From Escherichia coli (GTDB lineage: Bacteria > Pseudomonadota > Gammaproteobacteria > Enterobacterales > Enterobacteriaceae), in NCBI RefSeq assembly GCF_003991155.1, contig NZ_CP031294.1: 64,000 bases of DNA; one strand, 5' to 3'. The notes beneath the pieces were generated by a model. It worked only from the letters and a program-made list of their open reading frames with translations, was not told where the DNA came from and did no database searches. Of the stretch, positions 2,454-56,894 are shown in pieces (the stretch's first letter is position 1; each line of letters opens with the position of its first letter). Both the position numbers and the translations under genes were made by a program.

Positions 2454-3206
2454 TTAATCTTTTAGGTATAAACCTACTGGAGTTCTTGTTTTGCGGGAGA
2501 TGATAAGTACGATAAATTTCTGAACGTTAACTTGCACTTTGTTTGGGAGCCAAGAGCTTAACTCTGCATCAAGCAACAATCCTCTGTTCCACGGCAAAAA
2601 TCCGGTTTCTTTCCCCATCCCGTACTCACCTAACACATCTTCGAACGTTTCTGTTTTGGCATTGTATATACGCACATCGCCGGTTCGCATGAGAGGCCCT
2701 GCCCAGATCTTAGCACCAGGAATGGTTTGTGTATCGTCGCAGACTAAATGCTCATACCAATGAAGAAGAAAGAGATAGGTACGGTGACACAATCCTCGCT
2801 GACGACGCTCTCTGACAGTTTCGACACCAGCTACCTGGTAACATTCGATCTCATTACCGTCTTCAACAAAACTATATTCACGCAGAGCTATCCTACCAGC
2901 GATCGTATTTTTGTTTTCGTCCAGAAGCCCGGACTGGAGCACCTCTTTGATAATCTCTTCTTCAGGGGCATCTTCATCCGCTCGATCTAAGATGAATTCG
3001 CTCAGGTCGCCTTGGTCGCGCGCACCTACACGTTCCATAGAGACATACAGGCAAATGTCATCTTCTGGTTCAATGATTTCAATTTCTGAGATTTTATAGA
3101 GGTAGGCTTCATTGATAAGAAAGCCAAAACGAACAACACGAGTCTCCCCTTTATGAGGAAACTCGCTTAGATCTTTTGAATATGCGCTATCTAGTGTAGG
3201 AGCCAT
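2454..3206 (-). CDS. hypothetical protein (250 aa)
   Basis: Long minus-strand ORF in the operon between the lysis genes and parA. No recognisable motif. Confidence 0.45.
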   Translation of the reverse strand: MAPTLDSAYSKDLSEFPHKGETRVVRFGFLINEAYLYKISEIEIIEPEDDICLYVSMERVGARDQGDLSEFILDRADEDAPEEEIIKEVLQSGLLDENKNTIAGRIALREYSFVEDGNEIECYQVAGVETVRERRQRGLCHRTYLFLLHWYEHLVCDDTQTIPGAKIWAGPLMRTGDVRIYNAKTETFEDVLGEYGMGKETGFLPWNRGLLLDAELSSWLPNKVQVNVQKFIVLIISRKTRTPVGLYLKD

Positions 3207-3574
3207 TTTGTAGCAGAATCATCAGCCTTAACCGTGCTGACAATGCTACCATGATTGCGTAAGAAGCGGCGAATAGAATGTTCAATAACCTCCGAAAAAG
3301 CCTCGATAAAACGAGACAGCTCAGGGTACTGTTTAGCTGGCTTGACTACAAAACGAACACGACCATTCAGGTAAATTGCTTCAGCTAATGGCTTCACGCT
3401 TGCACCAGCGCGCTCAACATCGTCTTTGAAGGTAACGATGAAGCGTGAGTCTTCCGGTTCAATAGCGTCATTATTGAGCTTACGTACTTCAAGCTTGTGC
3501 TGATTCAGCACATGAGTCTCGATAATACTCGTGCAATCGCGAATAGTTTGTATAGAACGTTTCTCGTTCAGCAT
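3191..3574 (-). CDS. hypothetical protein (127 aa)
   Basis: Minus-strand ORF that overlaps the next gene by 16 nt, which suggests translational coupling. No recognisable motif. Confidence 0.4.
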   Translation of the reverse strand: MLNEKRSIQTIRDCTSIIETHVLNQHKLEVRKLNNDAIEPEDSRFIVTFKDDVERAGASVKPLAEAIYLNGRVRFVVKPAKQYPELSRFIEAFSEVIEHSIRRFLRNHGSIVSTVKADDSATKWLLH

Positions 3575-3798
3575 GTGTCCACCTTAGCCGTTAACACAAG
3601 TGTCATTGCGGCACCCCTCTCGGGGTTGAAGGCTACGAGGATGCGTAGCCTGTATGTGCCCACTTACGTGGATGCCTAATAAATCTACATCAAATTACTA
3701 AATGATTCAACATGAGCTTGAGTGAACAGGCGTGTATATGAGTGAAGATGCCATCTTTAGGATAAAAGGTAAACTGAGACCACTCATCAATCATCGCC

Positions 3799-37615: not shown

Positions 37616-38142
37616 ACATGACAACCAAAGATATTACCTACGGTATCCAAGCTGAACTCTGGCCGCGAGATTACACTAACGTTGAAAAACTACTGATGTT
37701 CTGGCGCAGAGAACAAATTCCTGTAAGGGTCACTCTCGAAGATGGCCAGGCGTTTTGCATGTACGTTTATGGCCTCATGCCATCTCGTAACAAAGTTGAC
37801 CTTTGCCCAGCCCCTTTTGACAAAGAAAATCGTATAAGGCTCCCACTTGAACGCATTAGTACAATTGAATCAGGTGTGGTTGACAGTATCGCTCACGATT
37901 TCAAAGGTCGACTAACAGTTCACCCTGATTATGTCGATAATCGGCCATCACGCCGCGATTTTTTTGCAATTTGCAACCAAGCCTACAAAGCAAACAAATC
38001 TATAAGGGTGTACATGGCGGATGGCCGTGAAATTGAGGGGGTGTCAGCAGGCGCAGATGCTTGTCAGGTTACACTACGTGTCGAGAACGGTAGAAAAATA
38101 GTTGTTTTGTTCGATTGGGTTGAACGAATTTTGCCTTTTTGA
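37616..38142 (+). CDS. hypothetical protein (about 175 aa)
   Basis: The ORF begins MTTKDITYGIQAELWPRDY... The start is chosen at the first ATG after the lipoprotein stop. Confidence 0.4.
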
Positions 38143-40379: not shown

Positions 40380-40500
40380 TGCAGCCGTTTCCCGAAAAAA
40401 TCCTGGCCGTTTCCCGTCGGCTCATGAATACGTTCCTCGCCGTTTCTGAAAATTTCCCTGCGGCAGCTGGTGGCTATAGAGAAAGGGCCGTTTCTGGCCC
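40380..40500. repeat. iteron cluster 1: four copies of GCCGTTTC(C/T) followed by CGAAAA/TGAAAA-type sequence
   Basis: The copies are gcagccgtttcccgaaaaaatcc, tggccgtttcccgtcgg, ctcgccgtttctgaaaatttccctg and gggccgtttctggccc. Confidence 0.5.
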
Positions 40501-40509
40501 TCTTCTCAG

Positions 40510-40992
40510 TTACACGCCATCAAGGATGTGGATGCGGTTGCTTGCGTATACATTCAGCATAAAGTTAGCGCAAAACAGTTTCCATGTATCAACGCCAGCG
40601 GTATACGTAATGTTTTTGCATTTAATCGCATTGTTGGCGATCCGCATCCCCTGCGATACTGCTTCATCGTCGGAAAATTTGAACGACGATTGAGTTTTAA
40701 TCCAGACAGAAATCTGCGTAGCGAACTCAATCAGCTTGGACTGGCAGAATCGCCCGGAGCGCACCGGAAAGACGAACGTTCCGAATCCAGAATTTACCAC
40801 ATATGCTTTCTCAAATACCCGCGAGTAACGACGATTGCCAATGATGTCGCGTGCAATAATGCATTTTTCTTGTGCTGACAGTTCTACCGTCTCATTGTCG
40901 CGCCATGCACCAAGTACTCGTTTTTCAATGTCAGAGAACGTTACAGCGATATTGCCATGTGCGGGTGCGTTTACAGTAGCGATAAAATTCAT
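40510..40992 (-). CDS. hypothetical protein (160 aa)
   Basis: AAGGAAT RBS. The operator element lies 20 to 55 bp upstream. Confidence 0.5.
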   Translation of the reverse strand: MNFIATVNAPAHGNIAVTFSDIEKRVLGAWRDNETVELSAQEKCIIARDIIGNRRYSRVFEKAYVVNSGFGTFVFPVRSGRFCQSKLIEFATQISVWIKTQSSFKFSDDEAVSQGMRIANNAIKCKNITYTAGVDTWKLFCANFMLNVYASNRIHILDGV

Positions 40993-41010
40993 GATTAATT
41001 CCTTATCGTA

Positions 41011-41046
41011 AATAACAAATTGTTTTCTTGTTGGTGTTAATTATCG
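41011..41046. promoter_or_regulatory. island operator/promoter element ATAACAAATTGTTTTCTTGTTGGTGTTAATTATCG
   Basis: The core palindrome is AACAAATTGTT. On the coding strand it gives GATAAT or TAATTA (a -10-like hexamer), then about 12 nt, then the palindrome, then the RBS. Confidence 0.5.
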
Positions 41047-41165
41047 TTGTACGAATAAGGCGTCAAAGTGGAAAGTTGCGGTAGCCGGACGGGAACAGGT
41101 GGGTTTGTCGGTTGCCTGGAGGTAAGAGGTTGGTGTTTTTAGCCTGCGGGAAACAGGATGGTCAT

Positions 41166-41193
41166 TTAAGGCCACCAGCATTGGTGGCCTTAA
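41166..41193. terminator. hairpin TTAAGGCCACCAGCATTGGTGGCCTTAA (copy 1)
   Basis: Perfect 11-bp stem. A near-identical copy with an inverted loop is at 41637. Confidence 0.5.
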
Positions 41194-41196
41194 TCT

Positions 41197-41480
41197 TTAG
41201 TGGAGCAGACCGATGTCGATGGTATCCCCTGAATCATCCACACGGATCATCAGCATGGCAAAGGCGTTTAGTGGATAGCTTGCGTGCCATTCAGGGAAGC
41301 GGTCATCTCGCATGAAGTCGGCAATGTCGTAAACGCATCCCTCAAAGTGGAAGAATCGCGTGCTTACCTGCTCGTCATAATCCACATGATCCATTTCTTG
41401 CTGTTCTGTTTCCGGCAAGTCCAGCCATGATTCAAGAAATACATTTTGTGCTTTAGGGGTAATGGTGAAATCAGTCATGA
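41197..41480 (-). CDS. small acidic protein (about 94 aa)
   Basis: The start is reassigned to the ATG at 41480, preceded by GAGGAT. Reads MLMTDFTITPKAQNVFLESWLDLPETEQQEMDHVDYDEQ... Strongly acidic. Confidence 0.45.
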
Positions 41481-41507
41481 GCATATCCTCACTGCGTAAA
41501 CATGTTG

Positions 41508-41540
41508 TTTTCTTGTTGGTGTAATTATCGCAGTGTAGAT
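41508..41540. promoter_or_regulatory. operator element variant AAACATGTTGTTTTCTTGTTGGTGTAATTATCG
   Basis: Same downstream half (TTTTCTTGTTGGTGT-AATTATCG) as the copy at 41011. The palindromic core is AACATGTT. Confidence 0.45.
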
Positions 41541-41636
41541 AAGGCATAAAAGAAGTTAATACAGGCTGAATACACAAGAAAGGTTCTGGAAGTTGATAGC
41601 CAGGTTTCAAACTAACCTTCGGTTATTAAAAGTCAT

Positions 41637-41664
41637 TTAAGACCACCAATGCTGGTGGCCTTAA
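41637..41664. terminator. hairpin TTAAGACCACCAATGCTGGTGGCCTTAA (copy 2)
   Basis: See the copy at 41166. Both are preceded by GTCATTTAA. Confidence 0.5.
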
Positions 41665-41813
41665 TAATTATCGCCCGATTACGCTAAGGATCTTTTCCTC
41701 AACTGATTTGTTGTTGCGACTAAACTGCCTTGCGTATCTGATGACAGAAGAGGCGTTTTGCTTTCTGACCATCTCGGCTCTTTCCTTCAGGCGTTTCTTG
41801 AAATCGCCCATAT

Positions 41814-42188
41814 TTACCACCAGGCGCAGAAGGTCAGTCTGTTATTGTGAAAGTCGTGGTTCTTAATCAGATCTTCCACAAGCTCTTTCAACTCCCCCAC
41901 ATCATGCCAGTAACCTTCATCGTACTCCTGACTGCCGAAGAAAAAACCTTCCCGGGTAGGCAAGTACTCTTCGCAATTACTTTCGTTTATGTGCATCAAA
42001 TGAGCCTTCAGAAAACAAATGTCATTCATCGTTAATTCTAAAAGCTCACAATTTTCGACTTCACCTACGTTGCGCTCCATCCACCCAACGAGCGCATTGA
42101 ACTTACGGAAGTAAGCAACCTGCTTTCTGGATGCCTCGTTATTCAGATCGTTTTTAGGCTGTGTCTCGATATAGATATCAAGTCCCAT
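41814..42188 (-). CDS. hypothetical acidic protein (about 124 aa)
   Basis: The start is reassigned to MGLDIYIETQ..., preceded by AAGGAAACC. An operator-like AAACAAATTGTTAT lies at 42247. Confidence 0.45.
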   Translation of the reverse strand: MGLDIYIETQPKNDLNNEASRKQVAYFRKFNALVGWMERNVGEVENCELLELTMNDICFLKAHLMHINESNCEEYLPTREGFFFGSQEYDEGYWHDVGELKELVEDLIKNHDFHNNRLTFCAWW

Positions 42189-42305
42189 GATGGTTTCCTT
42201 ATTAAGTTGCTTCAGTGAAATCATTTTCACAAATCAGATAAGGCAGAAAACAAATTGTTATCGGGCATAAGAAAATGGCGCGGTTTACGCGCCATTCAAA
42301 GAGGA

Positions 42306-42698
42306 TTAAGCGAATACGCTTTCAGGGATTAAGGTGTCAGCAGGAATGCCGGAGGTAATGCGCAGGCCGTACTGACCAATCCAGGTAGTGTTGGTATTCA
42401 GGCTGGAGGCGAATACGGTGTTAACCATATTCATCATGGTTTCAAACACCTCTTCATCAACCTGGCGGAAGTAGTTCTCGATTTTCAGCAGCAGCGGGTC
42501 AGTTGCATCGAAAATAGACTGGTATTGAGTCGCGTACTCGCCGCCGGAGGCATCACCTTTACGCACGATCGTACTGGCCTGGACTTCGGCACCAGTTTCG
42601 GTGTTGTACGTAACAACGGTGATTTTTGCCACATTCTTACCTTCGGCGGTTTCAGAGGCATAGTAAACATCAACTGTCAGTTTTTCGCGTTTAACGGT
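42306..42698 (-). CDS. hypothetical protein (about 131 aa)
   Basis: The start is reassigned to MTVKREKL..., preceded by GGAGAGTG. The palindrome GTAAGTATGTACTTAC lies upstream at 42745. Confidence 0.45.
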   Translation of the reverse strand, partial: TVKREKLTVDVYYASETAEGKNVAKITVVTYNTETGAEVQASTIVRKGDASGGEYATQYQSIFDATDPLLLKIENYFRQVDEEVFETMMNMVNTVFASSLNTNTTWIGQYGLRITSGIPADTLIPESVFA

Positions 42699-42827
42699 CA
42701 TTTCACTCTCCGTAGTGTTTTGGTTATTTTTATATTCTATGATCGTAAGTATGTACTTACAATACAAAAAAGCCCCGTAAGGATGGCGGGGCTGTCGTAC
42801 TGTCGACTAATTACCACTTGCACATTA

Positions 42828-43139
42828 TCAGGCTATTGCCATCACTGATGCTCTCTGAATCTCTTGCTGGGCCACGCGGTTAACTTCCATCAAAGCCAGT
42901 TCGAGCTGATGTTCCGGCCACATTCTTTGAAATGCCACCCAGCCTTTTCCACGCTGGCGACGAACATTCATTACATAACGAGTAAAGGTGTATTTATCGA
43001 AAGACACCGCTGTTTCACGGAACAGACGAATAGAGGTTCCATTGGCAACGATGTCCAGCAAAGTTAATTGAGCAACCAGCGCAGGCTTCTCTTTTCTCTT
43101 CTGGTCTTTGTCCAGACCAAGAACCAATGATTTTTTCAT
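42828..43139 (-). CDS. hypothetical protein (about 103 aa)
   Basis: The operator AAACAACTTGTTT at 43152 lies just upstream of the MKKSLVLG start. Confidence 0.4.
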   Translation of the reverse strand: MKKSLVLGLDKDQKRKEKPALVAQLTLLDIVANGTSIRLFRETAVSFDKYTFTRYVMNVRRQRGKGWVAFQRMWPEHQLELALMEVNRVAQQEIQRASVMAIA

Positions 43140-43292
43140 CACAACTCCGTAAACAACTTGTTTTCTCAATGGCGTAAATAATACCAGTAAGAAAACGGCT
43201 ACAAAGCATATTGATCAGGTGCATGAGCGATATGCAGGTTCTTCCCTGCGGCTATAGAGAAATTAAGCCAGCATTGCTGGCTTTGGTTAGGT

Positions 43293-43622
43293 TTACTCGA
43301 ATACTTCAAGAAACTCCTGAACGTCCCAATGCTGGACAAGGTGAAGATAGACCTTAGAAATAACATCATTCTCGCTATCGCATGTGAAGTAGTACTTCTG
43401 GCTGCGGTTGTATGTGTCCACACAAAATTCGCTCATATCCATAAAGTCAGCATCTTCACCCATGTCGCAAATCATCAAAGCAGGTGCGTCATCACGAGTC
43501 ATCAGCTCAAGCACCCACCGCGAATTGATCAGAGTGGAAGACCAACCTTCTAACTCATAAAACTGATCAAACTCTTTTTGAGTTAATTTCTTGATTTGGT
43601 TGATGTCGATATTTGCAAACAT
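43293..43622 (-). CDS. small acidic protein (about 110 aa)
   Basis: The product begins MFANIDINQIKKL... and has high Asp/Glu content. The operator lies at 43633. Confidence 0.45.
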   Translation of the reverse strand: MFANIDINQIKKLTQKEFDQFYELEGWSSTLINSRWVLELMTRDDAPALMICDMGEDADFMDMSEFCVDTYNRSQKYYFTCDSENDVISKVYLHLVQHWDVQEFLEVFE

Positions 43623-43699
43623 AAAGCAATCCTTAAACAACATGTTTTCTTGATGGTGTTATTATCGCAATAACGCACAGGTGAAAAAGGATTTTATTC

Positions 43700-45170
43700 C
43701 GGTGAATGTGGTTTTGGCAGTGAGTTTTCAGGTTCAGTACCGAGTACACTTTTTACATTATTCTGATTTAGTGGCCGAAGGTGGCTGGTGGGCAGAATAA
43801 TCCTCTCCCCGAAAACCTACTGAAATCGATTGTGACCCGTTGGCTGTCTGGCACAATTACGCTGTAACTGGGCATTCAGAGGGAATCCAGCGGTAAGTAA
43901 GTTCGCCTGCACGTGAGCGCCTCTCTTCTTCCCGCACATTACAGGTGGGTAGCCGCAACTCTCCCTCTCGCTATACCGGTACGCCGCCGTTCCTGAACCG
44001 GCATCGAGCCTTCTCCCGAAATCCACACAGGCAACTCGACCGTTTCCCTGAAAACCTCCAGCCGTTCCCCGAAGGCAACCCAGCCGTTTCTGTAGCGGGA
44101 TGCAACCTTTTCCCTGTATGGACCGAAGGCTGACCGTAGGGGTGTTACGGGGGATAAAATCAGGAGTTGAATAAATACGAAAAAGGAGGCGACACCCCTC
44201 CTTCTCTCCCCACTTATACATACCTGGCTTCTTCGCTATACATGTTGTGTTTTATTCGTGTTTTATCTGTCTCAACCTCTCTATGGACGTTAATACTCAC
44301 TCCTTCCAGAACGTTCTATACGGCGACTAATTCTGTTGGTGAATTGGGTGTGTTGTTCTCTCTGTCGGTGTATGTGGTTTCGTTCGTTTTGCGGTGGTTC
44401 TTCTATGGGGTGTTCTCGTCGTTTTGGTGATTGTTCTTCTCCGTGTATGGAGTAATGGCAGGTGGGCGATTCCTTTCGTTATTGTGTTTGAGTTGTTTGT
44501 CTGGAGTGCGTGAAGGGCTTTTGTAGTTATTCGTGTGTTGGGTAATGGCGTTTCCCGTGATTGTTCTGTTTCGTGTCTTTTGGGATTGAGAGAAACCTTG
44601 CGGTTACAGGCTTCGTTGGGGTTTCAGTGATTCTGGTGTTTCTTCGCTGTTTGGGTAATGGCGTGTCGTGGGTATCGCGCGTATGGAAGTTTCGAATTGC
44701 CTGTGAAAGTTAGGTTGGTTGTCCGGTAGCCTGAGAAGAAGAGGTGGGTCTTTTCGGTAGCCTGCCATAAAGAGGTTGGTTGTTTTTGGTAATGGCATAT
44801 GTGTTATTTAGTTGTTTTGTTATGCCTGAAAATAAGTTGTTTATATGGTTATGTAACGCAACGGGAACGATTTTGAGCGTGTGTTTTTGTTGGTAGTGTG
44901 TTGGGTCGTCTGTGGTGAAAATTGGACGCTGTGGCGCTGTCTGCTGCGTAGAATTACGGGTATAAGCAGTGATGTGTGAAAACGTCAATTTTTTAGACCA
45001 AATCGGGTGAAAGCGTTGATGTTTCGTTGATCTGTTATTCAGTTGTTTTCTTATTGGTATAAACAACTGTAACCTATTGATATTTAAGGATGTGATTCCA
45101 GGCATGGAAGGGGAGTAGTGGCGATCAACGGATTCTTATAGAAAAGAATCAAATTGTGACCGCCATTATC
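43700..45170. repeat. 1.4-kb non-coding region: iteron cluster 2 (about 43,960-44,130, the same CCGTTTCCC-GAAAA family as 40380-40500) plus a strongly G/T-skewed segment (about 44,230-44,800) with GGTAATGGC repeated four times and CGGTAGCCTG repeated twice
   Basis: No ORF with a credible start or RBS. The repeats were read directly (ctctccccgaaaacc, ccttctcccgaaatcc, cgaccgtttccctgaaaacc, cagccgttccccgaagg, cagccgtttctgtagcg, aaccttttccctgtatgg). The plus strand between 44,340 and 44,800 has very few A. Confidence 0.6.
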
Positions 45171-45176
45171 AATGTT

Positions 45177-45911
45177 TTACTTAGTTTTGTTTAGCAGAGA
45201 GAGAATTTCATCACTAATTTCACTCGCCTGTTTGATAGCCAATGCAGTTACCTCTTCTATGGTTGGTGACTGTTGATGCTCATATTTGGTTTCGGTTATG
45301 ACAATGTGTTCTTCACCAGAATTTGCGCATAGTGCCGCATTGACGATAAGGTTTGAGTAAGAATTTAGCAGAGCACTGTTGATGAACGCTTTCACGGTAT
45401 TACTGTCTGCACCAAATACATCTTTTCTGACCGCTTCAGCCTCACAGCGAACCCCTGCAGCAACATCGTGAAGAACATGTATGGCCTTGGAGCTTGTTTG
45501 TTCACAGTACTCAATCATTATTGTCGAATTGTTCTGTTCAACAAACGATCTGATGCCTGACGATTTACCCATAGCATCGAAGGCAGCGTGACCCGCACTA
45601 GTAGAGATATCTTCATAGAGTTCTTCATCGCTATCTTTTTCTTCAGGTGTCGAGGTGTCTTCATCGTCGTAATAGATATTGCCTTTAATCAGTGTCTTGG
45701 ACACTTGATATAAACAATAAGAAACGAGATTTAAGCATTGGATTTTAGCTGTATTGTCCTTTGTCGCCTCGCTATTCAGTTCTTTCGCTTCTTCAGTAAG
45801 GCTGTTGATAAGACTTTGTATTTTTTCCAACGCGTTAGGTGCACACTCCGCGTTGTCCATAAAGAATTTATAACCAGTCCCAGGGATTTCTAAACTTTTC
45901 AACTTTTTCAT
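45177..45911 (-). CDS. hypothetical acidic protein (244 aa)
   Basis: Good ORF. The Asp/Glu-rich central segment reads DDEDTSTPEEKDSDEELYEDIS. Confidence 0.5.
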   Translation of the reverse strand: MKKLKSLEIPGTGYKFFMDNAECAPNALEKIQSLINSLTEEAKELNSEATKDNTAKIQCLNLVSYCLYQVSKTLIKGNIYYDDEDTSTPEEKDSDEELYEDISTSAGHAAFDAMGKSSGIRSFVEQNNSTIMIEYCEQTSSKAIHVLHDVAAGVRCEAEAVRKDVFGADSNTVKAFINSALLNSYSNLIVNAALCANSGEEHIVITETKYEHQQSPTIEEVTALAIKQASEISDEILSLLNKTK

Positions 45912-45956
45912 TTCTTTGATAATCCTAAAAACAAACTACCAATGCTTTAATATCTG

Positions 45957-46256
45957 TTACCAGTTCCAGCACTCAAGCCCTTCAACGACCGGCGCACCAC
46001 AATCAAAATGTACAGAGTCAAAGCCTACATCAAGTACTTTCTGAATGTTAGCAATCGCGCCTTCGGATATACCATATCGACGCAAGTCCTCTTTCCAGAC
46101 ATCATCCTGTAACCCAGCGTGGACAATACAACCGCCGTCAATTTGTGAAACCCAATCCAGCTCATTGCTTGCGATCATGAATCGGCGAGCATCTTCCTCT
46201 GATGTATGAGATGAGCTGATCAATGCCACCTGGTAGGCTTGGGTAATGTTCAACAT
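45957..46256 (-). CDS. small acidic protein (99 aa)
   Basis: Two operator palindromes lie immediately upstream. Confidence 0.45.
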   Translation of the reverse strand: MLNITQAYQVALISSSHTSEEDARRFMIASNELDWVSQIDGGCIVHAGLQDDVWKEDLRRYGISEGAIANIQKVLDVGFDSVHFDCGAPVVEGLECWNW

Positions 46257-46265
46257 TTCAACAAC

Positions 46266-46336
46266 TCCGAAACAATTTGTTTTCTTATGTGGCTTATTAT
46301 CTCAATCAACAAAAGGTAGAAAACAAATTGTTTTAG
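46266..46336. promoter_or_regulatory. tandem operators AAACAATTTGTTT (46268) and AAACAAATTGTTT (46318)
   Basis: Read directly. The first is followed by TCTTATGTGGCTTATTATCTC, as in the other copies. Confidence 0.5.
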
Positions 46337-46417
46337 GGTTTGTTAAAGTCAGAAGGGGTTGTGTCTATATGAAAATGCCCAGCGTGTTGCCGGGCATTGC
46401 GAACAGAGGTTGTTTAA

Positions 46418-48451
46418 TTACTTAACCTGGTGGCCTGGTTTAGCACCAGCATCCGGGCTTAACAGGAAGATATCTTTCCCGCCGGGGCCAGCAGCCATCA
46501 CCATGCCTTCGGAGATACCGAAGCGCATTTTACGCGGAGCCAGGTTAGCCACCATAATGGTGTGACGACCAATCAGTGCCTGTGGGTCTGGATAAGCAGA
46601 ACGGATGCCTGAGAAGACATTACGCTTTTCACCACCGAGATCCAGTGTCAGACGCAGCAGTTTGTCAGAACCTTCGACAAACTCCGCGTTTTCAATCAGC
46701 GCCACACGCAGGTCAACTTTGGCGAAGTCGTCAAAGGTGATGGTTTCCTGAATCGGGTCGTCAGCCAGTGGGCCAGTTACCGGTGCAGCTGTGGCTTTCA
46801 CTTCTTCTTTGGATGCTTCCACCAGTGCTTCCACCTGTTTCATATCGATACGGTTATACAATGCCTTGAACGGATTCACTTTATGGCCCAGCAGCGGTTG
46901 CTGGATACCATCCCAGGTCAGTTCTGTATTCAGGAATGCTTCTGCACGTTCAGTCAGTTTCGGCAGTACCGGTTTCAAGTACGTCATCAGCACGCGGAAC
47001 AGGTTAATGCCCATAGAGCAAATCGCCTGCAGATCGGCATCGCGTCCTTCCTGCTTCGCCACCACCCACGGAGCCTGTTCATCGACATATCGGTTAGCCA
47101 GGTCAGCCAATGCCATGATTTCACGGATAGCTTTACCAAATTCGCGGCTTTCCCATGCTTCGCCAATCACTTCAGCGGCATCAGTAAAGGTTTTGTACAG
47201 TTGCGGGTCAGCCAGTTCGCTTGCCAGCACGCCGTCAAAACGCTTGTTGATAAAGCCTGCATTACGGGAGGCCAGGTTAACCACTTTGTTCACGATATCG
47301 GCATTCACGCGCTGAACGAAATCCTCCAGGTTGAGATCGATATCATCAATGCGCGAAGAGAGTTTCGCAGTGTAGTAGTAACGCAGGCTGTCGGCGTCAA
47401 AATGATTCAGCCAGGTGCTGGCTTTAATAAAGGTGCCGCGAGACTTGGACATCTTCGCGCCGTTCACCGTCACATAGCCGTGAACAAACAGGTTGGTCGG
47501 CTTGCGGAAGTTGCTGCCTTCCAGCATGGCAGGCCAGAACAGGCTGTGGAAGTAAACAATATCTTTACCGATGAAGTGGTACAGCTCGGCTGTGGAGTCT
47601 TTCTTCCAGTATTCATCGAAGCTGGTGGTATCGCCGCGCTTGTCGCACAGATTCTTGAAGGAACCCATGTAGCCAATCGGCGCGTCCAGCCAGACGTAGA
47701 AATATTTGCCCGGCGCGTTCGGAATTTCAAAACCGAAGTAAGGCGCATCGCGGGAGATATCCCACTGTTGCAGGCCGGATTCAAACCACTCCTGCATTTT
47801 GTTCGCCACCTGCTCCTGCAACGCACCGCTGCGGGTCCATGCCTGCAACATTTCGCTGAAAGAGGGCAGATCAAAGAAGAAGTGTTCGGAATCACGCATT
47901 ACCGGGGTAGCGCCAGAAACCACCGATTTCGGCTCGATCAATTCAGTCGGGCTATATGTTGCGCCGCAGACTTCACAGTTATCGCCGTATTGATCTGGCG
48001 CTTTACATTTCGGGCAGGTGCCTTTCACAAAACGATCCGGCAGGAACATGCCTTTTTCCGGGTCGTACAACTGAGAGATAGTGCGGTTTTTAATAAAACC
48101 GTTCTCTTTCAGGCGAGTATAGATAAGCTCAGACAGCTGGCGGTTCTCTTCGCTGTGCGTCGAGTGATAGTTGTCATAGCTGATGTTAAAGCCTGCGAAA
48201 TCAGTCTGGTGTTCCTGACTCATTTCGCCAATCATCTGCTCCGGTGTGATACCAAGCTGCTGTGCTTTCAGCATGATCGGCGTACCGTGGGCATCGTCGG
48301 CACAGATGAAATTAACCTCGTGGCCGCGCATTCGCTGGTAACGAACCCAGACATCAGCCTGGATGTGCTCCAGCATATGGCCGAGGTGGATTGAGCCGTT
48401 AGCGTACGGCAGCGCGCACGTCACCAGAATTTTCTTCGCGACTTGGGTCAT
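46418..48451 (-). CDS. metG: methionyl-tRNA synthetase
   Basis: Translation from [35 protein letters not shown]... carries the class I HIGH motif and KMSKS (…GAKMSKSRG…). The full-length product is 677 aa with a C-terminal tRNA-binding domain. A terminator hairpin follows the stop. Confidence 0.95.
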
Positions 48452-48608: not shown

Positions 48609-49709
48609 ATGAGCGAGTCCAAATCGCCGGATGCCCTGAGAGCAATGGTAGCCGGTACGCTGGCTAATTTTCAGCACCCAACCCTGAAACACAACCTGAC
48701 TACGCTTAAAGCGTTACACCATGTTGCGTTGATGGATGACACACTGCATGTCGAACTAATCATGCCTTTCGTGTGGAATAAGCCTTTTGAAGACCTGAAA
48801 GAGCAATGTAGTGGTGATCTGCTCCGTATCACTGGCGCAAAGGCTATTGACTGGAAGCTGTCGTACAACATTGCCACGCTTAAGCGCGTCAAAAACCAAC
48901 CAGGCATTAATGGCGTTAAGAACATTATCGCCGTCAGCTCAGGCAAGGGCGGCGTGGGTAAATCCTCCACGGCGGTAAACCTGGCACTGGCGTTGGCTGC
49001 TGAAGGTGCGAAAGTTGGTATTTTGGATGCCGATATCTATGGTCCATCAATTCCAACCATGCTGGGCGCGGAAAACCAACGTCCAACCTCACCTGACGGT
49101 ACTCACATGGCACCTATCATGTCTCATGGCCTGGCAACCAACTCTATTGGTTATCTGGTCACCGACGACAATGCAATGGTGTGGCGTGGACCGATGGCCA
49201 GCAAGGCGCTGATGCAGATGTTGCAGGAAACTCTATGGCCTGATCTGGACTATCTCGTTCTCGATATGCCGCCGGGCACTGGTGATATTCAGTTGACGCT
49301 GGCGCAGAACATTCCTGTAACTGGTGCGGTTGTGGTAACTACGCCGCAAGACATCGCGCTGATCGATGCGAAGAAAGGCATTGTGATGTTCGAAAAAGTC
49401 GAAGTGCCGGTACTGGGTATCGTCGAAAACATGAGTGTGCATATTTGCAGTAACTGCGGTCATCACGAGCCAATTTTTGGCACCGGTGGCGCACAGAAAC
49501 TGGCCGAGAAATACAACACGCAGTTGTTAGGCCAAATGCCACTTCATATCTCTCTTCGTGAAGATCTGGATAACGGAACACCAACCGTTATTAGTCGTCC
49601 AGATAGCGAATTTACGGCTATTTATCGTGACCTCGCAGATCGCGTTGCCGCCCAAATGTATTGGCAAGGTGAAGTAATACCTGGCGAAATCGCATTCCGC
49701 GCAGTGTGA
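48609..49709 (+). CDS. mrp: Mrp/ApbC Fe-S cluster carrier ATPase
   Basis: MSESKSPDALRAM... The P-loop reads VSSGKGGVGKSSTAVNLA. The CxxC pair reads CSNCGHHEP. Divergent from metG with a 157-bp intergenic region. A terminator hairpin follows. Confidence 0.93.
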   Translation: MSESKSPDALRAMVAGTLANFQHPTLKHNLTTLKALHHVALMDDTLHVELIMPFVWNKPFEDLKEQCSGDLLRITGAKAIDWKLSYNIATLKRVKNQPGINGVKNIIAVSSGKGGVGKSSTAVNLALALAAEGAKVGILDADIYGPSIPTMLGAENQRPTSPDGTHMAPIMSHGLATNSIGYLVTDDNAMVWRGPMASKALMQMLQETLWPDLDYLVLDMPPGTGDIQLTLAQNIPVTGAVVVTTPQDIALIDAKKGIVMFEKVEVPVLGIVENMSVHICSNCGHHEPIFGTGGAQKLAEKYNTQLLGQMPLHISLREDLDNGTPTVISRPDSEFTAIYRDLADRVAAQMYWQGEVIPGEIAFRAV

Positions 49710-49745: not shown

Positions 49746-50135
49746 CTACATCACGGGACAATCATCAAACTCGCCACTTCTTGCGTCGTTGATAATGTGA
49801 GTGATCACACCAAACACGGCATTGCTGCCCGTGCATCCATCGTCATCCTTTGGCAATGCTTCCTTCTTACCGGTTCTTAAATCCTCCAGATGCTGACGTG
49901 GGTACTTCCGGTATCTTTTTACGCGATATTCCCCATCCAGAGCGCATACAAGCAGAGAACCATCAACCGGGGTAAGTGAGGAATCGACCACCAGCAATGC
50001 ACCCTGTAATATTCCCTCACGATGATGACTATCAGCTGCCCTCATGAAGTAGGTCGCTGAAGGATGTCTAATTATCTGCTGATCAAGAGAAATACGGCTC
50101 TCAGCATAATCCGCCGCAGGAGAAGGGAAGCCCAT
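49746..50135 (-). CDS. UmuD/LexA-like S24 peptidase-domain protein (orphan, no umuC partner in the window)
   Basis: The 129-aa product has a C-terminal S24-like domain ...DGSLLVCALDGEYRVKRYRKYP.... A LexA box lies 19 bp upstream. Confidence 0.65.
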   Translation of the reverse strand: MGFPSPAADYAESRISLDQQIIRHPSATYFMRAADSHHREGILQGALLVVDSSLTPVDGSLLVCALDGEYRVKRYRKYPRQHLEDLRTGKKEALPKDDDGCTGSNAVFGVITHIINDARSGEFDDCPVM

Positions 50136-50153: not shown

Positions 50154-50173
50154 TACTGTTTATCCATACAGTA
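50154..50173. promoter_or_regulatory. LexA (SOS) box TACTGTTTATCCATACAGTA
   Basis: Perfect CTGT-N8-ACAG with TA flanks, read directly at 50154-50173. Confidence 0.8.
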
Positions 50174-50837: not shown

Positions 50838-52396
50838 ATGAAAATGACAAGTATTCAACAACGTGCAGAGCTTCATCGCCAGATCTGGCAAATTGCTAAC
50901 GATGTCAGGGGTTCAGTCGATGGATGGGATTTTAAGCAGTACGTTTTGGGCGCGCTTTTTTACCGTTTTATCAGCGAAAATTTTTCCAGTTATATTGAAG
51001 CCGGTGATGACAGTATCTGTTATGCGAAACTGGATGACAGCGTAATTACTGATGACATTAAAGACGATGCCATCAAAACTAAAGGCTACTTCATCTACCC
51101 CAGTCAGCTTTTCTGCAACGTAGCTGCGAAAGCAAATACTAATGACAGACTGAATGCAGATTTAAACAGCATCTTCGTTGCTATCGAAAGTTCTGCTTAC
51201 GGTTATCCTTCAGAAGCTGACATCAAAGGTTTGTTTGCTGATTTCGATACCACCAGTAACCGCCTGGGTAACACCGTTAAAGATAAAAATGCCCGCTTGG
51301 CTGCGGTTCTGAAAGGGGTTGAAGGGCTAAAACTTGGTGACTTCCATGAACATCAGATTGACCTGTTCGGTGACGCCTATGAGTTCCTGATTTCTAACTA
51401 TGCGGCGAATGCCGGTAAGTCCGGCGGCGAGTTCTTTACACCGCAGCACGTCTCTAAGCTGATTGCACAACTGGCTATGCACGGGCAGACCCACGTTAAC
51501 AAAATCTACGACCCGGCAGCAGGCTCCGGTTCGCTGTTGTTGCAGGCGAAAAAACAGTTTGATGACCATATCATCGAAGAAGGTTTTTTTGGTCAGGAAA
51601 TCAACCATACGACCTATAACCTGGCGCGTATGAACATGTTTTTGCACAACATCAACTACGACAAGTTTGATATCAAGCTGGGTAATACACTGACTGAGCC
51701 GCACTTCAGAGATGAAAAACCGTTTGATGCCATCGTTTCTAACCCGCCGTATTCGGTGAAATGGATTGGCAGCGATGACCCGACGCTGATTAACGATGAA
51801 CGTTTTGCCCCGGCTGGCGTTCTGGCCCCCAAATCCAAAGCTGACTTTGCGTTTGTATTACATGCGCTGAACTATCTTTCGGCCAAAGGTCGCGCTGCGA
51901 TTGTCTGCTTCCCAGGCATTTTTTACCGTGGCGGCGCGGAGCAGAAAATCCGTCAGTATCTGGTCGACAATAACTATGTCGAAACCGTGATTTCACTGGC
52001 ACCGAATCTGTTCTTTGGCACCACTATTGCCGTCAATATTCTGGTGCTGTCTAAACATAAAACGGATACCAAAGTTCAGTTTATTGATGCCAGCGAACTG
52101 TTCAAAAAAGAGACTAACAACAACATTCTGACCGATGCTCATATCGAACAGATTATGCAGGTATTTGCCAGCAAGGAAGATGTTGCTCATCTGGCGAAAT
52201 CTGTTGCGTTTGAGACTGTTGTCGCGAATGACTATAACCTGTCGGTGAGCAGCTATGTGGAAGCGAAAGATACTCGCGAAATTATCGATATCGCTGAGCT
52301 GAATGCTGAGCTGAAAACCACGGTCAGCAAAATCGACCAGTTGCGTAAAGATATTGATGCGATTGTTGCTGAGATTGAAGGTAGCGAGGTACAGGC

Positions 52397-52400
<4 letters not shown>
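50838..52400 (+). CDS. hsdM: type I restriction-modification methyltransferase subunit HsdM (type IC, EcoR124-family)
   Basis: [25 protein letters not shown]... An AdoMet-binding region and a catalytic SNPPYSVKW (NPPY) motif are present. The stop overlaps the hsdS start. Confidence 0.9.
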
Positions 52401-53656
<1,256 letters not shown>

Positions 53657-53777
53657 TTGACCATTGCTACCGACCGGATCACCTTAACATCCGGTCTATA
53701 TAGAGACTATTTTTTACACGCCGGAAGTCGCCCTTAAAGCCCTTCCGGCCCTTGCCAGACGGCACAAAGGATGCGCT

Positions 53778-56700
53778 ATGACTCATCAGACACACACCAT
53801 TGCTGAATCCAATAACTTTATCGTTCTTGATAAGTACATCAAAGCCGAGCAAACAGGCGACAGCTACCAGAGCGAATCGGACCTGGAACGTGAACTGATT
53901 CAGGATCTGCGGAATCAGGGCTATGAATTTATTTCCGTAAAATCTCAGTCGGCGATGCTGGCCAACGTTCGGGAACAGCTTCAGAGCCTCAATGGTGTGA
54001 TGTTTAATGACAGCGAGTGGCGGCGCTTCACGGAGCAGTATCTGGACAACCCCAGCGATGGTATTCTGGATAAAACCCGTAAAATCCATATCGACTATAT
54101 CTGCGACTTTATTTTTGACGACGGGCGACTTGAGAACATCTATTTGATAGATAAAAAGAATCTCATGCGCAATAAGGTGCAGATTATCCAGCAGTTTGAA
54201 CAGACGGGTTCTCATGCTAACCGTTATGACGTCACGATCCTGGTTAATGGTTTACCGCTGGTGCAAATCGAACTAAAAAAACGCGGGGTGGCGATTCGTG
54301 AGGCTTTCAACCAGATACATCGTTACAGTAAAGAGAGTTTTAACAGCGAAAATTCCCTGTTTAAGTATCTGCAACTGTTTGTCATTTCTAACGGCACCGA
54401 TACCCGTTATTTTGCCAACACGACAAAGCGCGATAAAAACAGTTTTGACTTCACCATGAATTGGGCGAAATCAGACAACACGCTGATTAAAGACCTCAAA
54501 GACTTTACCGCTACCTTTTTCCAGAAACATACTCTGCTGAATGTTCTGGTGAACTACAGCGTTTTTGACAGTAGTCAGACGCTACTGGTGATGCGACCGT
54601 ACCAGATTGCCGCCACCGAGCGCATTCTGTGGAAAATTAAGAGTTCCTTTACAGCGAAGAACTGGTCAAAACCGGAAAGCGGTGGGTATATCTGGCATAC
54701 TACCGGTTCTGGTAAAACCCTCACCAGCTTTAAAGCCGCGCGTCTGGCAACAGAGCTGGACTTTATTGATAAAGTCTTCTTTGTGGTCGACAGGAAAGAC
54801 CTCGATTACCAGACCATGAAGGAATATCAGCGTTTTTCGCCAGACAGCGTCAACGGCTCGGAAAATACCGCAGGCCTTAAACGAAATCTGGATAAGGACG
54901 ATAACAAAATTATCGTCACTACTATTCAGAAACTCAATAACCTGATGAAAGCAGAAAGCGACCTGCCTGTATATAATCAGCAAGTGGTGTTTATATTTGA
55001 TGAATGCCACCGCAGCCAGTTTGGAGAAGCGCAGAAAAACCTGAAGAAGAAATTCAAACGCTATTATCAGTTTGGTTTTACCGGCACCCCTATTTTCCCG
55101 GAAAACGCTTTAGGCTCAGAAACGACCGCCAGCGTATTTGGTCGTGAATTGCATTCGTATGTAATTACCGATGCGATTCGTGATGAAAAAGTGCTCAAAT
55201 TCAAGGTGGACTACAACGATGTGCGGCCACAGTTTAAATCTTTAGAGACAGAAACCGACGAGAAAAAACTGAGTGCGGCTGAAAATCAGCAGGCATTTCT
55301 TCATCCCATGCGTATACAGGAAATTACGCAATATATTCTGAATAACTTCCGCCAGAAGACCCACCGTACTTTCCCAGGTTCCAAAGGCTTTAATGCCATG
55401 CTGGCAGTGAGTAGCGTGGATGCCGCGAAAGCCTATTACGCGACGTTTAAACGGTTACAAGAGGAAGCAGCTAATAAATCGGCTACCTATAAACCGCTGC
55501 GTGTTGCAACAATCTTCTCCTTTGCCGCCAATGAAGAACAAAATGCCATTGGTGAAATTTCCGATGAAACTTTTGATACCAGCGCAATGGACAGCAGTGC
55601 TAAAGAGTTTCTTGACGCTGCAATTCGTGAGTATAACAGCTATTTTAAAACTAACTTCAGCACCGACAGTAACGGTTTTCAGAACTACTATCGTGATTTA
55701 GCCCAACGGGTTAAAAATCAGGATATCGATCTGTTAATTGTCGTTGGGATGTTTTTAACCGGCTTCGACGCTCCAACATTGAACACGCTATTCGTCGATA
55801 AAAACTTGCGTTTTCACGGCCTGATGCAGGCATTCTCCCGTACCAACCGCATTTATGACGCTACTAAAACCTTCGGTAACATCGTCACTTTTCGGGATCT
55901 GGAACGCTCAACCATTGATGCCATAACGCTGTTTGGTGATAAAAATACTAAAAATGTGGTGTTAGAAAAGAGTTATGCTGAGTATATGGAAGGCTTTACA
56001 GATGCTGCCACTGGTGAAGCTAAACGCGGCTTTATGGCAGTAGTTTCAGAACTGGAACAACGGTTCCCTGACCCTGCCAGTATTGAAAGTGAAAAACAGA
56101 AGAAAGACTTCGTAAAACTGTTTGGTGAATACCTGCGTGCCGAGAACATCCTGCAAAACTATGATGAATTTGCCACGCTGAAAGCCCTGCAACAAATCGA
56201 TCTTAGCGATCCTGTTGCGGTAGAAAAATTCAAAGCAGAACATTATGTGGATGATGAAAAGTTCGCTGAATTGCAAACAATTCGTCTCCCTGCTGAACGC
56301 AAGATTCAGGATTATCGTTCTGCCTATAACGATATTCGCGACTGGCAGCGCCGTGAGAAAGAAGCTGAGAAAAAAGAGAAATCAACCACTGACTGGGATG
56401 ACGTAGTTTTTGAGGTCGATTTGCTGAAGTCTCAGGAAATAAACCTGGATTATATCCTTGGACTGATTTTCGAACACAACAGACAAAATAAAGGCAAGGG
56501 CGAAATGATCGAAGAGGTCAAACGCTTAATTCGTTCAAGCCTGGGGAACCGGGCGAAAGAGGGCCTGGTGGTCGATTTTATTCAGCAAACGAACCTGGAT
56601 GATTTACCAGACAAAGCCAGTATCATTGAGGCATTCTTTACGTTTGCTCAACGCGAACAGCAACGTGAAGCAGAAGCATTGATAAAAGAAGAAAATCTCA

Positions 56701-56894
56701 ATGAAGAGGCGGCGAAACGCTATATTCGCACGTCTTTAAAACGCGAATACGCCACCGAAAATGGCACAGAATTAAACGAGACATTACCAAAACTTAGTCC
56801 GTTAAACCCGCAATATAAAACGAAAAAACAGACCGTTTTCCAGAAAATCGTCACGTTTATTGAAAAGTTCAAAGGAGTAGGTGGGCAGATATAG
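53778..56894 (+). CDS. hsdR: type I restriction enzyme endonuclease/translocase subunit HsdR
   Basis: The 1038-aa product has an SF2 helicase Walker A …TGSGKT…, a DEAH/DECH-like …[16 protein letters not shown]… and helicase C-terminal motifs. It lies 122 bp after hsdS. Confidence 0.9.

Follow-up and report, generated by a model that had tools for sequence, protein, structure and literature searches.

A block of small genes at positions 40400-46260 of a 64,000-nucleotide stretch of Escherichia coli DNA (contig NZ_CP031294.1; the whole stretch is called the window below) forms a genuine and conserved module of genes and regulatory sites, not described before, in a group of phage-plasmids that is widespread in the clinic, the SSU5/pHCM2 type. 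It is a mosaic of core genes and variable cassettes, arranged as separate promoter-gene-terminator units, most of which share one palindromic operator, and the cassettes probably aid establishment of the element in a new cell. The reading that we favour for the whole, and consider rather probable, is that of a repressor-gated array of small-gene cassettes carried by the phage-plasmid, in which the variable cassettes serve establishment or counter-defence. For some of these cassettes, circumstantial evidence points to an establishment or anti-defence role.

The interval is 100% identical to E. coli plasmid pEC17CM6_2 (110,667 bp) and 98.3% identical to Escherichia phage Cyrano, an SSU5-like phage-plasmid of E. 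coli LF82. The window as a whole belongs to an SSU5/pHCM2-type phage-plasmid and corresponds to plasmid positions 32001-96000. Among 5,426 complete E. coli genomes, 244 contained a match to the interval, at 259 places in total, all of them on plasmids and none on a chromosome.

All eight open reading frames (ORFs) listed in a preliminary description of the block, which had been made from the sequence alone, are present on the minus strand and agree with the RefSeq and ENA annotations, after correction of two coordinates (41197-41478 rather than an end at 41480, and 42306-42701 rather than an end at 42698). A ninth ORF of 47 amino acids (aa), 41668-41811, was missing from that list; it is annotated in Cyrano, not in RefSeq. 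For 45957-46256, RefSeq carries a 222-nt version only, the start of which is probably set too short: the 300-nt form is backed by the ribosome-binding site (RBS), the position of the operator, the ENA annotation and the span of the Pfam match (residues 12-99).

A typical unit consists of an extended -10 sigma-70 promoter, a 16-nt operator covering the presumed transcription start and 5′ untranslated region (UTR), an RBS, one or two ORFs and a hairpin. The operator is AGAAAACAAnTTGTTT, and its core AAACAA-n-TTGTTT is a 13-bp palindrome. With the pattern AGAAAACAANNTGTTT and up to 2 mismatches, 21 matches were found in the window, where 1.29 are expected. It had been claimed that each ORF has its own operator copy. 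This holds for six of the eight units (ORFs 45957-46256, 43293-43622, 42828-43139, 41814-42188, 41197-41478 and 40510-40992), in which the operator lies directly 3′ of an extended -10 (TGnGATAAT or TGGTATTAT), starting 0-10 nt after the -10 hexamer and standing a few bases 5′ of the RBS; ORFs 42306-42701 and 45177-45911 have none. A second, inverted copy is found 5′ of several promoters, and its distance from the first is 51 bp, centre to centre, in unit 1 of the window and at six promoters of relatives, a spacing that would suit cooperative binding on one helix face. Directly 3′ of the stop codon, every unit has a stable hairpin (z between -2.2 and -5.7), several of them with a U-run, which confirms the monocistronic architecture. 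A terminal hairpin is a feature of every unit, and the likeness to phage accessory regions made of autonomous promoter-operator-ORF-terminator units is as first described. The features of the block are as follows, in the direction of transcription.

46257-46340, minus strand: regulatory region of unit 1, with an inverted operator (46318-46333), a -10 element, a downstream operator and the RBS CGGAG
46296-46301, minus strand: GATAAT of the unit 1 -10 element TGAGATAAT, within this regulatory region
46270-46285, minus strand: downstream operator of unit 1, AGAAAACAAATTGTTT; the centres of the operator pair are 51 bp apart
45957-46256, minus strand: acidic ORF of 99 aa (DUF5983), isoelectric point (pI) 4.35, operator-bearing
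45177-45911, minus strand: acidic ORF of 244 aa, without operator; rare cargo, expressed in the lysogen
45119-45165, minus strand: compound hairpin 3′ of the 244-aa ORF, marking the start of the non-coding element (-19.1 kcal/mol, z -4.66)
43650-45115, no strand: conserved 1.5-kb non-coding element, between the 244-aa and 109-aa ORFs
43635-43669, minus strand: promoter and operator of the 109-aa unit, TGCGATAAT then AGAAAACATGTTGTTT
43293-43622, minus strand: acidic ORF of 109 aa, pI 4.21, operator-bearing; a near-orphan of E. coli elements
43265-43283, minus strand: terminator-like hairpin of the 109-aa unit (z -4.33)
43151-43185, minus strand: promoter and operator of the 103-aa unit, TGGTATTAT then AGAAAACAAGTTGTTT
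42828-43139, minus strand: basic ORF of 103 aa, pI 10.3; core gene of the SSU5 lineage, no Pfam match
42771-42793, minus strand: intrinsic terminator of the 103-aa unit, a GC stem then U6
42734-42762, minus strand: sigma-70-like promoter of the 131-aa ORF (TTGTAA, 17-nt spacer, TAGAAT)
42306-42701, minus strand: acidic ORF of 131 aa, without operator; the fastest-evolving core gene
42273-42297, minus strand: intrinsic terminator of the 131-aa unit (z -4.22)
42245-42260, minus strand: inverted operator 5′ of the 124-aa ORF, in the region 42223-42263 that forms the left junction of an inserted cassette
42236-42244, minus strand: copy of GCCTTATCT ahead of the 124-aa ORF
42223-42231, minus strand: TGTGAAAAT, ahead of the 124-aa ORF
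41814-42188, minus strand: acidic ORF of 124 aa, pI 4.69, with the invariant family motifs MGLD, YFRKxN and PTxxGFFFG
41668-41811, minus strand: basic ORF of 47 aa, pI 11, translationally coupled to the 124-aa ORF
41637-41664, minus strand: 28-nt palindromic hairpin at the end of the 124-aa/47-aa cassette (z -4.67)
41498-41545, minus strand: promoter and operator of the 93-aa unit, GCCTTATCT (41537-41545), TGCGATAAT and AGAAAACAACATGTTT
41197-41478, minus strand: ORF of 93 aa, pI 4.11, operator-bearing; core gene, also in Yersinia pestis
41166-41193, minus strand: second copy of the 28-nt palindromic hairpin, 3′ of the 93-aa ORF (z -5.73)
41070-41165: CAGGCTA/ACCnACCT repeat copies preceding the 160-aa promoter, the same repeats as in the non-coding element
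41013-41066, minus strand: promoter and operator of the 160-aa unit, TTGACG, GATAAT and AGAAAACAATTTGTTA
40510-40992, minus strand: basic ORF of 160 aa, pI 9.2; core gene, no Pfam or PDB match
40479-40507, minus strand: terminator hairpin of the 160-aa unit (z -4.07)
40384-40414: two GGGAAACGGC repeats beyond the 160-aa terminator hairpin

The unit architecture is kept in eight relatives of six genera, with operators at orthologous promoters, and near-invariant promoter-operator blocks with diverged flanks were found in SSU5, pHCM2 and the Salmonella, Citrobacter, Enterobacter and Klebsiella relatives. In the 109-aa unit, for instance, the promoter-operator block of about 45 nt is almost invariant in nine relatives, and its flanks have diverged. 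The outer stem GGCGGTCA/TGATCGCC of the hairpin at 45119-45165 is likewise kept in nearly all nine aligned relatives. The hairpins at 41166-41193 and 41637-41664 are two copies of a perfect 28-nt palindrome (TTAAGGCCACCA..TGGTGGCCTTAA) closing two different units; relatives carry similar AAGGCC..GGCCTT hairpins 3′ of operators. A distant, short metagenomic contig (L030), which encodes the nearest remote relative of the 93-aa protein, contains two exact operator palindromes (3202-3214 and 3766-3778), both intergenic among small, monocistronically spaced ORFs, meaning that the operator system reaches more distant elements.

The operator is not confined to the block. Over the entire plasmid (110.7 kb), 16 sites were found with at most 1 mismatch, 8 of them in the block. 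The sites outside it are at a DnaB-like helicase/primase operon, a cobT-AAA-dnaE operon and a small-terminase/structural operon (two sites), and further ones precede genes for an AAA ATPase and a DUF7238 protein as well as two units located 59.1 and 59.8 kb into the window. As the same operator heads the helicase/primase, dnaE and terminase operons, the site marks the lytic regulon of the element, and it most likely binds the master repressor of the prophage. The leading candidate for the predicted binder is a 128-aa Xre/HTH_19 protein encoded beside the integrase (plasmid positions 16963-17349), the equivalent of CYRAN_45 of Cyrano, and AAACAAnTTGTTT would be its presumed target.

Expression data are available for Cyrano in LF82 (RNA-seq, PMC9928086, S1 Table; values are log2 of fragments per kilobase per million plus 5). 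The operator-bearing genes CYRAN_101, 105, 106, 108 and 110 have values of 2.3-4.4 in LB medium, which is background, and go up by 2-3 log2 units inside macrophages, where the value for the S24 peptidase gene CYRAN_98 climbs from 7.4 to 12.3; the gene of the putative repressor, CYRAN_45, is expressed in LF82 lysogens (PMC9928086). Ciprofloxacin induces Cyrano 39-fold. We conclude that this 98%-identical relative, as a plasmid-prophage, keeps its operator-bearing cassettes switched off. Two other genes behave differently from the genes upstream of them: CYRAN_102, equivalent to the 244-aa ORF, is at 6.0-9.2 versus 2.8-5.5 for CYRAN_101, and CYRAN_109, equivalent to the 47-aa ORF, at 5.6-8.2 versus 2.3-5.5 for CYRAN_108 (PMC9928086). 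Such signals despite silent upstream genes imply internal promoters; alternatively, the signal of the 47-aa ORF could be that of a stable 3′ fragment protected by the terminator. Both genes are listed by the LF82 study as morons of Cyrano.

The block lies inside the phage-plasmid, with a group of small plus-strand genes (35.3-39.9 kb) on one side and cargo genes on the other. Annotated on the plasmid are metG, apbC, a LexA-like S24 peptidase, a theta-subunit homologue and hsdMSR genes. The neighbouring features that matter for what follows are these.

37618-38139, plus strand: 174-aa FljA-like protein (Pfam Flag1_repress, E 1.5e-84; weak Hfq-like signal), a conserved neighbour of the block
46418-48451, minus strand: metG, the complete gene of a methionyl-tRNA synthetase, present on the phage-plasmid and on Cyrano
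48609-49709, plus strand: apbC, carried by the phage-plasmid and by Cyrano
50156-50171: LexA box CTGTTTATCCATACAG, of perfect pattern, 5′ of the S24-peptidase gene (49746-50135, minus strand), whose product has a LexA/UmuD-like C-terminal domain
50844-56882, plus strand: type I restriction-modification (R-M) system (hsdM, hsdS, hsdR), variable cargo of the plasmid, absent from Cyrano

The block had been thought to sit between the virion genes and the chromosome, adjoining the R-M system, and neither statement survives. A chromosomal island beside metG is ruled out, the E. coli matches being plasmid-borne without exception and metG and apbC being annotated on both the phage-plasmid and Cyrano; it is the presence of these two genes on a plasmid that misled the preliminary description into a chromosome junction. 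As for the R-M system, it is 4.6 kb from the block with four genes between, and Cyrano, which has metG and apbC, lacks it at the equivalent position, so that its link to the block was wrong. The R-M system, metG and apbC are plasmid cargo and not chromosome. The S24-peptidase gene with its LexA box is the likely SOS input to induction. LexA itself was rejected as a direct regulator of the cassettes: the box at 50156-50171 is the only convincing one, and a box at 43010 is intra-coding and within chance expectation.

The ORFs are real genes. The ratio of nonsynonymous to synonymous substitution rates, calculated against SSU5 and Klebsiella orthologues, is 0.08-0.12 for the 93-aa gene, 0.12-0.19 for the 160-aa gene and 0.44 for the 131-aa gene, and every ORF falls into a PHROG family of unknown function. 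Together with family breadth and the confidence of the structural model of the 124-aa protein (see below), these ratios rule out spurious ORFs. Six of the proteins are acidic, with pI values of 4.1-4.7 (93 aa, 4.11; 109 aa, 4.21; 99 aa, 4.35; 131 aa, 4.48; 244 aa, 4.68; 124 aa, 4.69), an Asp+Glu content of 13-21.5% and net charges of -7 to -17. The 93-aa protein is the most acidic (21.5% Asp+Glu, net charge -15), the 109-aa protein has 20% Asp+Glu, and the most negative net charge, -17, is that of the 244-aa protein. To call most of them strongly Asp/Glu-rich was an overstatement: six of the eight listed ORFs are acidic, at the contents just given, and the 160-aa and 103-aa ORFs are basic.

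Searches of the nine ORFs against Pfam, NCBIfam, PADLOC and the sequences of solved structures gave nothing except for the 99-aa ORF, which matches DUF5983 (PF19419, E 7e-11, 42.7 bits for a cut-off of 27) along residues 12-99, i.e. positions 3-90 of the 90-position profile. The earlier remark that none of the eight listed ORFs matches a family that can be named is wrong for this one and right for the other seven, which lack any Pfam or NCBIfam match. That they have no detectable homologues was too strong a claim, given the DUF5983 match, the 79 clusters of the 124-aa family and the 83 representatives of the 93-aa profile; near-orphans are only the 109-aa ORF (10 clusters) and the 244-aa ORF (39 plasmids). 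Matches to multicystatin and antibodies among the solved structures were dismissed, as they had no significant aligned stretch, and membership of a defence system was ruled out by the zero matches of PADLOC. Neither known RNA families nor tRNAs were found in the block or in its non-coding stretch.

Four genes (103, 131, 93 and 160 aa) form the core. They are syntenic in the SSU5 lineage and present on about 750-930 plasmids, almost all of which are non-mobilizable. The 160-aa gene is found on 803 plasmids, with 68-82% identity across genera, and the 103-aa gene, possibly encoding a small regulator, on 745, nearly all non-mobilizable, with 62-75% identity; identity of the 131-aa gene between genera is 36-54%. 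Y. pestis plasmids retain the 160-aa and 93-aa genes, and no relatives of the 131-aa and 103-aa genes were found on them by tblastn. Among the variable genes, the 109-aa ORF has 10 clusters among 5.8 billion proteins, and other genera have ORFs of 72 and 70 aa at its place; the 244-aa ORF is restricted to its 39 plasmids, all from Escherichia or Shigella, with at least 95% identity.

The 124-aa and 47-aa ORFs form an insert that separates the upstream operator of the 93-aa promoter from its -10, falling exactly between the two. Of the aligned relatives, only E. coli pLAO4 has this insert, SSU5 and pHCM2 being among those that lack it, and GCCTTATCT is duplicated around it (42236-42244 and 41537-41545). 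An insert flanked in this way at a regulatory repeat suggests, from one junction, that cassettes are exchanged by recombination in repeated regulatory sequences.

For two of the nine ORFs, family members co-localise with known anti-defence genes on elements unrelated to this one. Those of the DUF5983 ORF (32-37% identity over the full length) are present on 2,300 plasmids, 1,663 of them conjugative. In the one pOXA-48-type IncL/M plasmid examined, the DUF5983 gene is the next one after ssb and belongs to the leading region, with an antirestriction gene (PF03230) at a distance of 1.3 kb and mobA/traI some 1.6-2 kb away. In the 124-aa family, where identity goes down to 29%, an E. coli relative (37% identity, full length) is encoded two genes upstream of an ArdA gene, and a metagenomic relative (48% identity, full length) immediately upstream of PF03230 (ArdB/KlcA-type) and MPTase-PolyVal genes, on an element that also encodes TraI_2 and TraG_N. 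Such co-localisation was not found for the 160-, 131-, 103-, 109- and 244-aa ORFs. As for the 93-aa ORF, the 83 remote representatives were obtained by an exhaustive profile search (E≤1e-3) and are about 90-100 aa long, without Pfam domains; one remote relative lies 2.4 kb from a DUF5983 gene, on an unrelated contig with an array of small ORFs. Pfam searches with distant members of the 124-aa and 93-aa families gave nothing.

Structure prediction and fold search, which had been proposed for these proteins, gave fold matches for one of the two modelled. The AlphaFold model of the 124-aa protein has a predicted local distance difference test score (pLDDT) of 94, and its best fold matches are DapD-N, YfbM and DMP12; it also resembles the colicin E3 and CdiI immunity proteins. 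Identity to DMP12 (a DNA mimic of Neisseria, PDB 3w1o), YfbM (1ryl) and the nuclease immunity proteins is 9-15%, with Foldseek E-values that are not significant, and the resemblance to DMP12 is weak. The invariant motifs MGLD, YFRKxN and GFFFG set the 124-aa family apart from these proteins, as they belong to it alone. For the model of the 93-aa protein, of moderate confidence (pLDDT 70.7), no fold match was found.

Ocr (T7 gp0.3) and ArdA resemble the proteins of the block in being small, acidic proteins of mobile elements that are made early, as is predicted here. No match to them, PF07275 included, was found in the nine ORFs, with an ArdA model that does detect a true ArdA in locus L015, and their fold is absent from the two modelled proteins. 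The idea of Ocr/ArdA-like DNA mimics thus finds no support in sequence or charge for any of the ORFs, nor in fold for the 124-aa and 93-aa proteins, and this specific claim is unsupported, apart from the weak DMP12 resemblance. The broader suggestion of anti-defence candidates fared better: the neighbourhoods and the model of the 124-aa protein lend circumstantial support in the case of the variable cassettes; family searches recognised no known anti-defence gene within the block. A published screen of 1,227 SSU5-group contigs for defence and anti-defence systems with DefenseFinder (v1.3.0) reported only Rad, in 16-22% of the Escherichia and Shigella elements. With almost no recognised anti-defence genes in the group, such functions remain to be found. 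An anti-defence function is plausible for the variable cassettes, and possible for the core genes.

The 1.5-kb non-coding element (43650-45115), of which the preliminary description made no mention, makes up a quarter of the interval. It contains no credible ORF, is unannotated in RefSeq, and is conserved in 832 plasmids of at least 6 genera and in SSU5. An Rfam search gave no match, and the element is silent in the lysogen RNA-seq of Cyrano. It includes the following.

Near 45050 and 44830: operator-like sites
44983-44988 and 44959-44964: promoter-like TTGACG and TATACC, with an 18-nt spacer
44180-44206: hairpin with a T-run
ACCnACCTCTT..CAGGCTACCG, a 31-nt repeat present three times
GCCATTAC, repeated three to five times in a C+A-rich tract (70-80% C+A on the gene strand)
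A G-rich part with GGGAAA(A/C)GG repeats, at spacings of 22, 31, 22 and 44 nt in most relatives

The repeat spacings of 22, 31 and 44 nt are compatible with a single helical face, and such phasing suggests that proteins bind the DNA in arrays, as they would at a lytic origin or a centromere-like locus; the element may be either. Copies of the repeats recur between the 93-aa and 160-aa genes and beyond the 160-aa gene. An identity with RepA iterons was rejected: the iterons flanking repA are of the TATCCACTATAG type and located elsewhere. A 350-nt piece of the element, operator included, is also found near psiA on a 200-kb IncFIB plasmid of Klebsiella variicola (L013, 4501-4856) and on similar plasmids. 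Fragments of insertion sequences bracket this Klebsiella match, which is most likely a captured SSU5-type remnant, and a native leading-region origin of the element is ruled out.

Put together, these data suggest the following scheme. During plasmid maintenance, the prophage master repressor (candidate, the Xre/HTH_19 protein) would hold the cassettes off. In a repressor-free cell after infection, or upon SOS induction, all cassettes would fire at once. Their products are soluble proteins of small size, acidic for the most part. Those of the variable cassettes (DUF5983, 124 aa and 109 aa) would most likely bind host proteins and inhibit them, in the service of early establishment or counter-defence. 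The array would then correspond, on a phage-plasmid, to the anti-defence islands that conjugative plasmids have in their leading regions. Core genes (103, 131, 93 and 160 aa) might serve the same purpose, or act as regulators or replication accessories tied to the adjacent non-coding element. The cassettes would be swapped by recombination inside the repeated promoter-operator sequences, as the single insertion junction suggests. A more ambitious version, which we put forward only tentatively, joins all this into a viral equivalent of a leading region: an entry-fired, repressor-gated array of single genes, drawing on a gene pool shared with conjugative plasmids and integrative and conjugative elements (DUF5983 and the MGLD-YFRK-GFFFG family), exchanged at promoter-operator linkers, holding at least one new family of defence inhibitors, and with the non-coding element as a new lytic origin or control locus. 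In that version, the best inhibitor candidates would be the 124-aa family, which has ArdA and KlcA neighbours elsewhere, and the highly acidic 93-aa family.

Several observations weigh against a repressor-gated establishment array. Half of the eight listed ORFs belong to the conserved core of the lineage, where arms-race cargo is not usually found, and three proteins are basic (160 aa, pI 9.2; 103 aa, pI 10.3; the unlisted 47 aa, pI 11.0). By sequence searches, no ORF belongs to a known anti-defence, defence or DNA-mimic family. Ocr/ArdA mimics have about 25-30% Asp+Glu and a net charge of about -25 or lower, a level that is not reached here, with maxima of 21.5% and -17. In three of the six contexts examined for it, the 124-aa family occurs in large lytic phages, as small early genes among genes of nucleotide metabolism and replication, and no anti-restriction neighbours were found in these three contexts, nor on a conjugative plasmid of Enterococcus. 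Expression in the lysogen is seen for the 244-aa and 47-aa ORFs. Finally, the RNA-seq on which repression is based comes from the 98%-identical Cyrano, and from lysogens only.

The conserved part of the block might instead be a module of lytic replication and regulation, made of the non-coding element and the 103-, 131-, 93- and 160-aa core genes, in which the phased repeats would bind a small basic protein (an initiator, or a Cro-like one), a promoter firing into the repeats would activate the origin, and the acidic proteins would play an accessory part, not one in anti-defence. In every SSU5-type relative examined, the four genes and the non-coding element are indeed syntenic, and both the phasing at 22, 31 and 44 nt and the repeat copies around the 160-aa gene go in this direction. 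Besides, the element encodes a helicase, a primase, a Pol III alpha subunit, RNase H and a UvsW-like helicase, yet no lytic origin has been identified in it, and the RepA iterons differ in sequence and sit elsewhere. However, neither Pfam nor NCBIfam detected a DNA-binding or initiator domain in the small proteins, there is no DnaA box in the region, and such a module fits poorly with variable cassettes that have relatives in plasmid leading regions. As a replacement for the establishment array, we consider it unlikely. Another proposal places the action of the motif in RNA, as a 5′-UTR operator for a translational repressor, the FljA-like protein encoded 2.4 kb away. FljA acts on the fliC 5′ UTR; the protein found here could repress host flagellin, or act on the 5′ UTRs of the element itself. 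The motif does lie between the -10 and the RBS, is mostly gene-oriented, and has the Flag1_repress protein as a conserved neighbour. Three facts nevertheless speak for an operator that acts as DNA and not as RNA: the core, a perfect palindrome of 13 bp around 1 central nt, allows no RNA hairpin, inverted copies are found 51 bp 5′ of promoters, past the terminator of the preceding gene, and at the dnaB helicase promoter the site abuts the -10, leaving part of it untranscribed. The mRNA itself is, moreover, at background in lysogens, and control at the RNA level appears very unlikely.

The remaining explanation is lysogenic-conversion or defence cargo, i.e. morons expressed from the prophage that benefit or protect the host, by superinfection exclusion for example. 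It accounts for the promoter-ORF-terminator shape of the units, for the presence of the 244-aa and 47-aa ORFs on the moron list of Cyrano, and for the company of other cargo on the element (the R-M system, metG and toxin-antitoxin genes). It is at odds with the background expression of six operator-bearing units in lysogens, with the absence of any PADLOC match, and with the control of replication and packaging genes by the same operator, which make it highly improbable. Lambdoid morons are units of promoter, gene and terminator placed between phage genes and expressed from the repressed prophage. The units described here are similar in being autonomous and in occupying intergenic junctions, and differ in that six of the eight are repressed in the lysogen. 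On balance, we retain the repressor-gated establishment array, and conclude that what the preliminary description observed is partly confirmed, and its interpretation partly supported.

Comparison with known regulons helps to place this array. In the C1 regulon of P1, one repressor acts on many operators dispersed over separate small operons. P1 is also a phage-plasmid, with a single operator dispersed before independent and often monocistronic units that include replication and accessory genes, and here too we observe a dispersed recurring operator, its overlap with promoters and, in Cyrano, operator genes that are off with the repressor on. The P1 operator, however, is asymmetric and unrelated in sequence, whereas the operator of the block is palindromic and its repressor a candidate only. 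The anti-restriction proteins of P1, DarA and DarB, are virion proteins and not early small proteins. Plasmid pKM101 (IncN) has a CUP regulon in which ardA, ardB, ardK and other genes each stand behind a repeated promoter element. The block shares with it one repeated promoter-operator per small gene and, as predicted here, one element-encoded repressor silencing all of them after entry. It differs in showing no sequence relation and in that pKM101 is a conjugative plasmid with proven ArdA and ArdB, none being proven here.

The leading regions of conjugative plasmids are documented anti-defence islands with many uncharacterised genes, and about 10% of their families have phage annotations (Samuel et al. 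2024, PMC11541004). Like the block, they gather small genes, most of them uncharacterised, which are expressed when the element enters a naive cell, as is predicted for the block, and two families are shared: DUF5983 (in the one pOXA-48-type plasmid) and the 124-aa family, with its ArdA and ArdB/KlcA neighbours. The differences are that the block is in a non-conjugative phage-plasmid, that half of its genes are lineage-specific core, that it is without a known anti-defence gene, and that leading regions use single-stranded Frpo promoters where the block has a predicted double-stranded DNA repressor operator.

SSU5-group phage-plasmids are common in clinical Enterobacteriaceae. They include pHCM2 of Salmonella Typhi, elements of extensively drug-resistant Shigella sonnei, and also resistance-gene-carrying plasmids of E. 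coli, Klebsiella and Enterobacter, and the biology of the group is almost unstudied. The present analysis provides an operator sequence and a map of the regulon for switching from the plasmid state to lytic growth, a shortlist of candidate establishment or anti-defence genes, two of which link the gene pools of phages and conjugative plasmids, and a conserved non-coding element that may be a lytic origin. If the candidates work as proposed, they would represent new inhibitor families, and the array would be the phage-plasmid counterpart of the leading-region strategy of plasmids.

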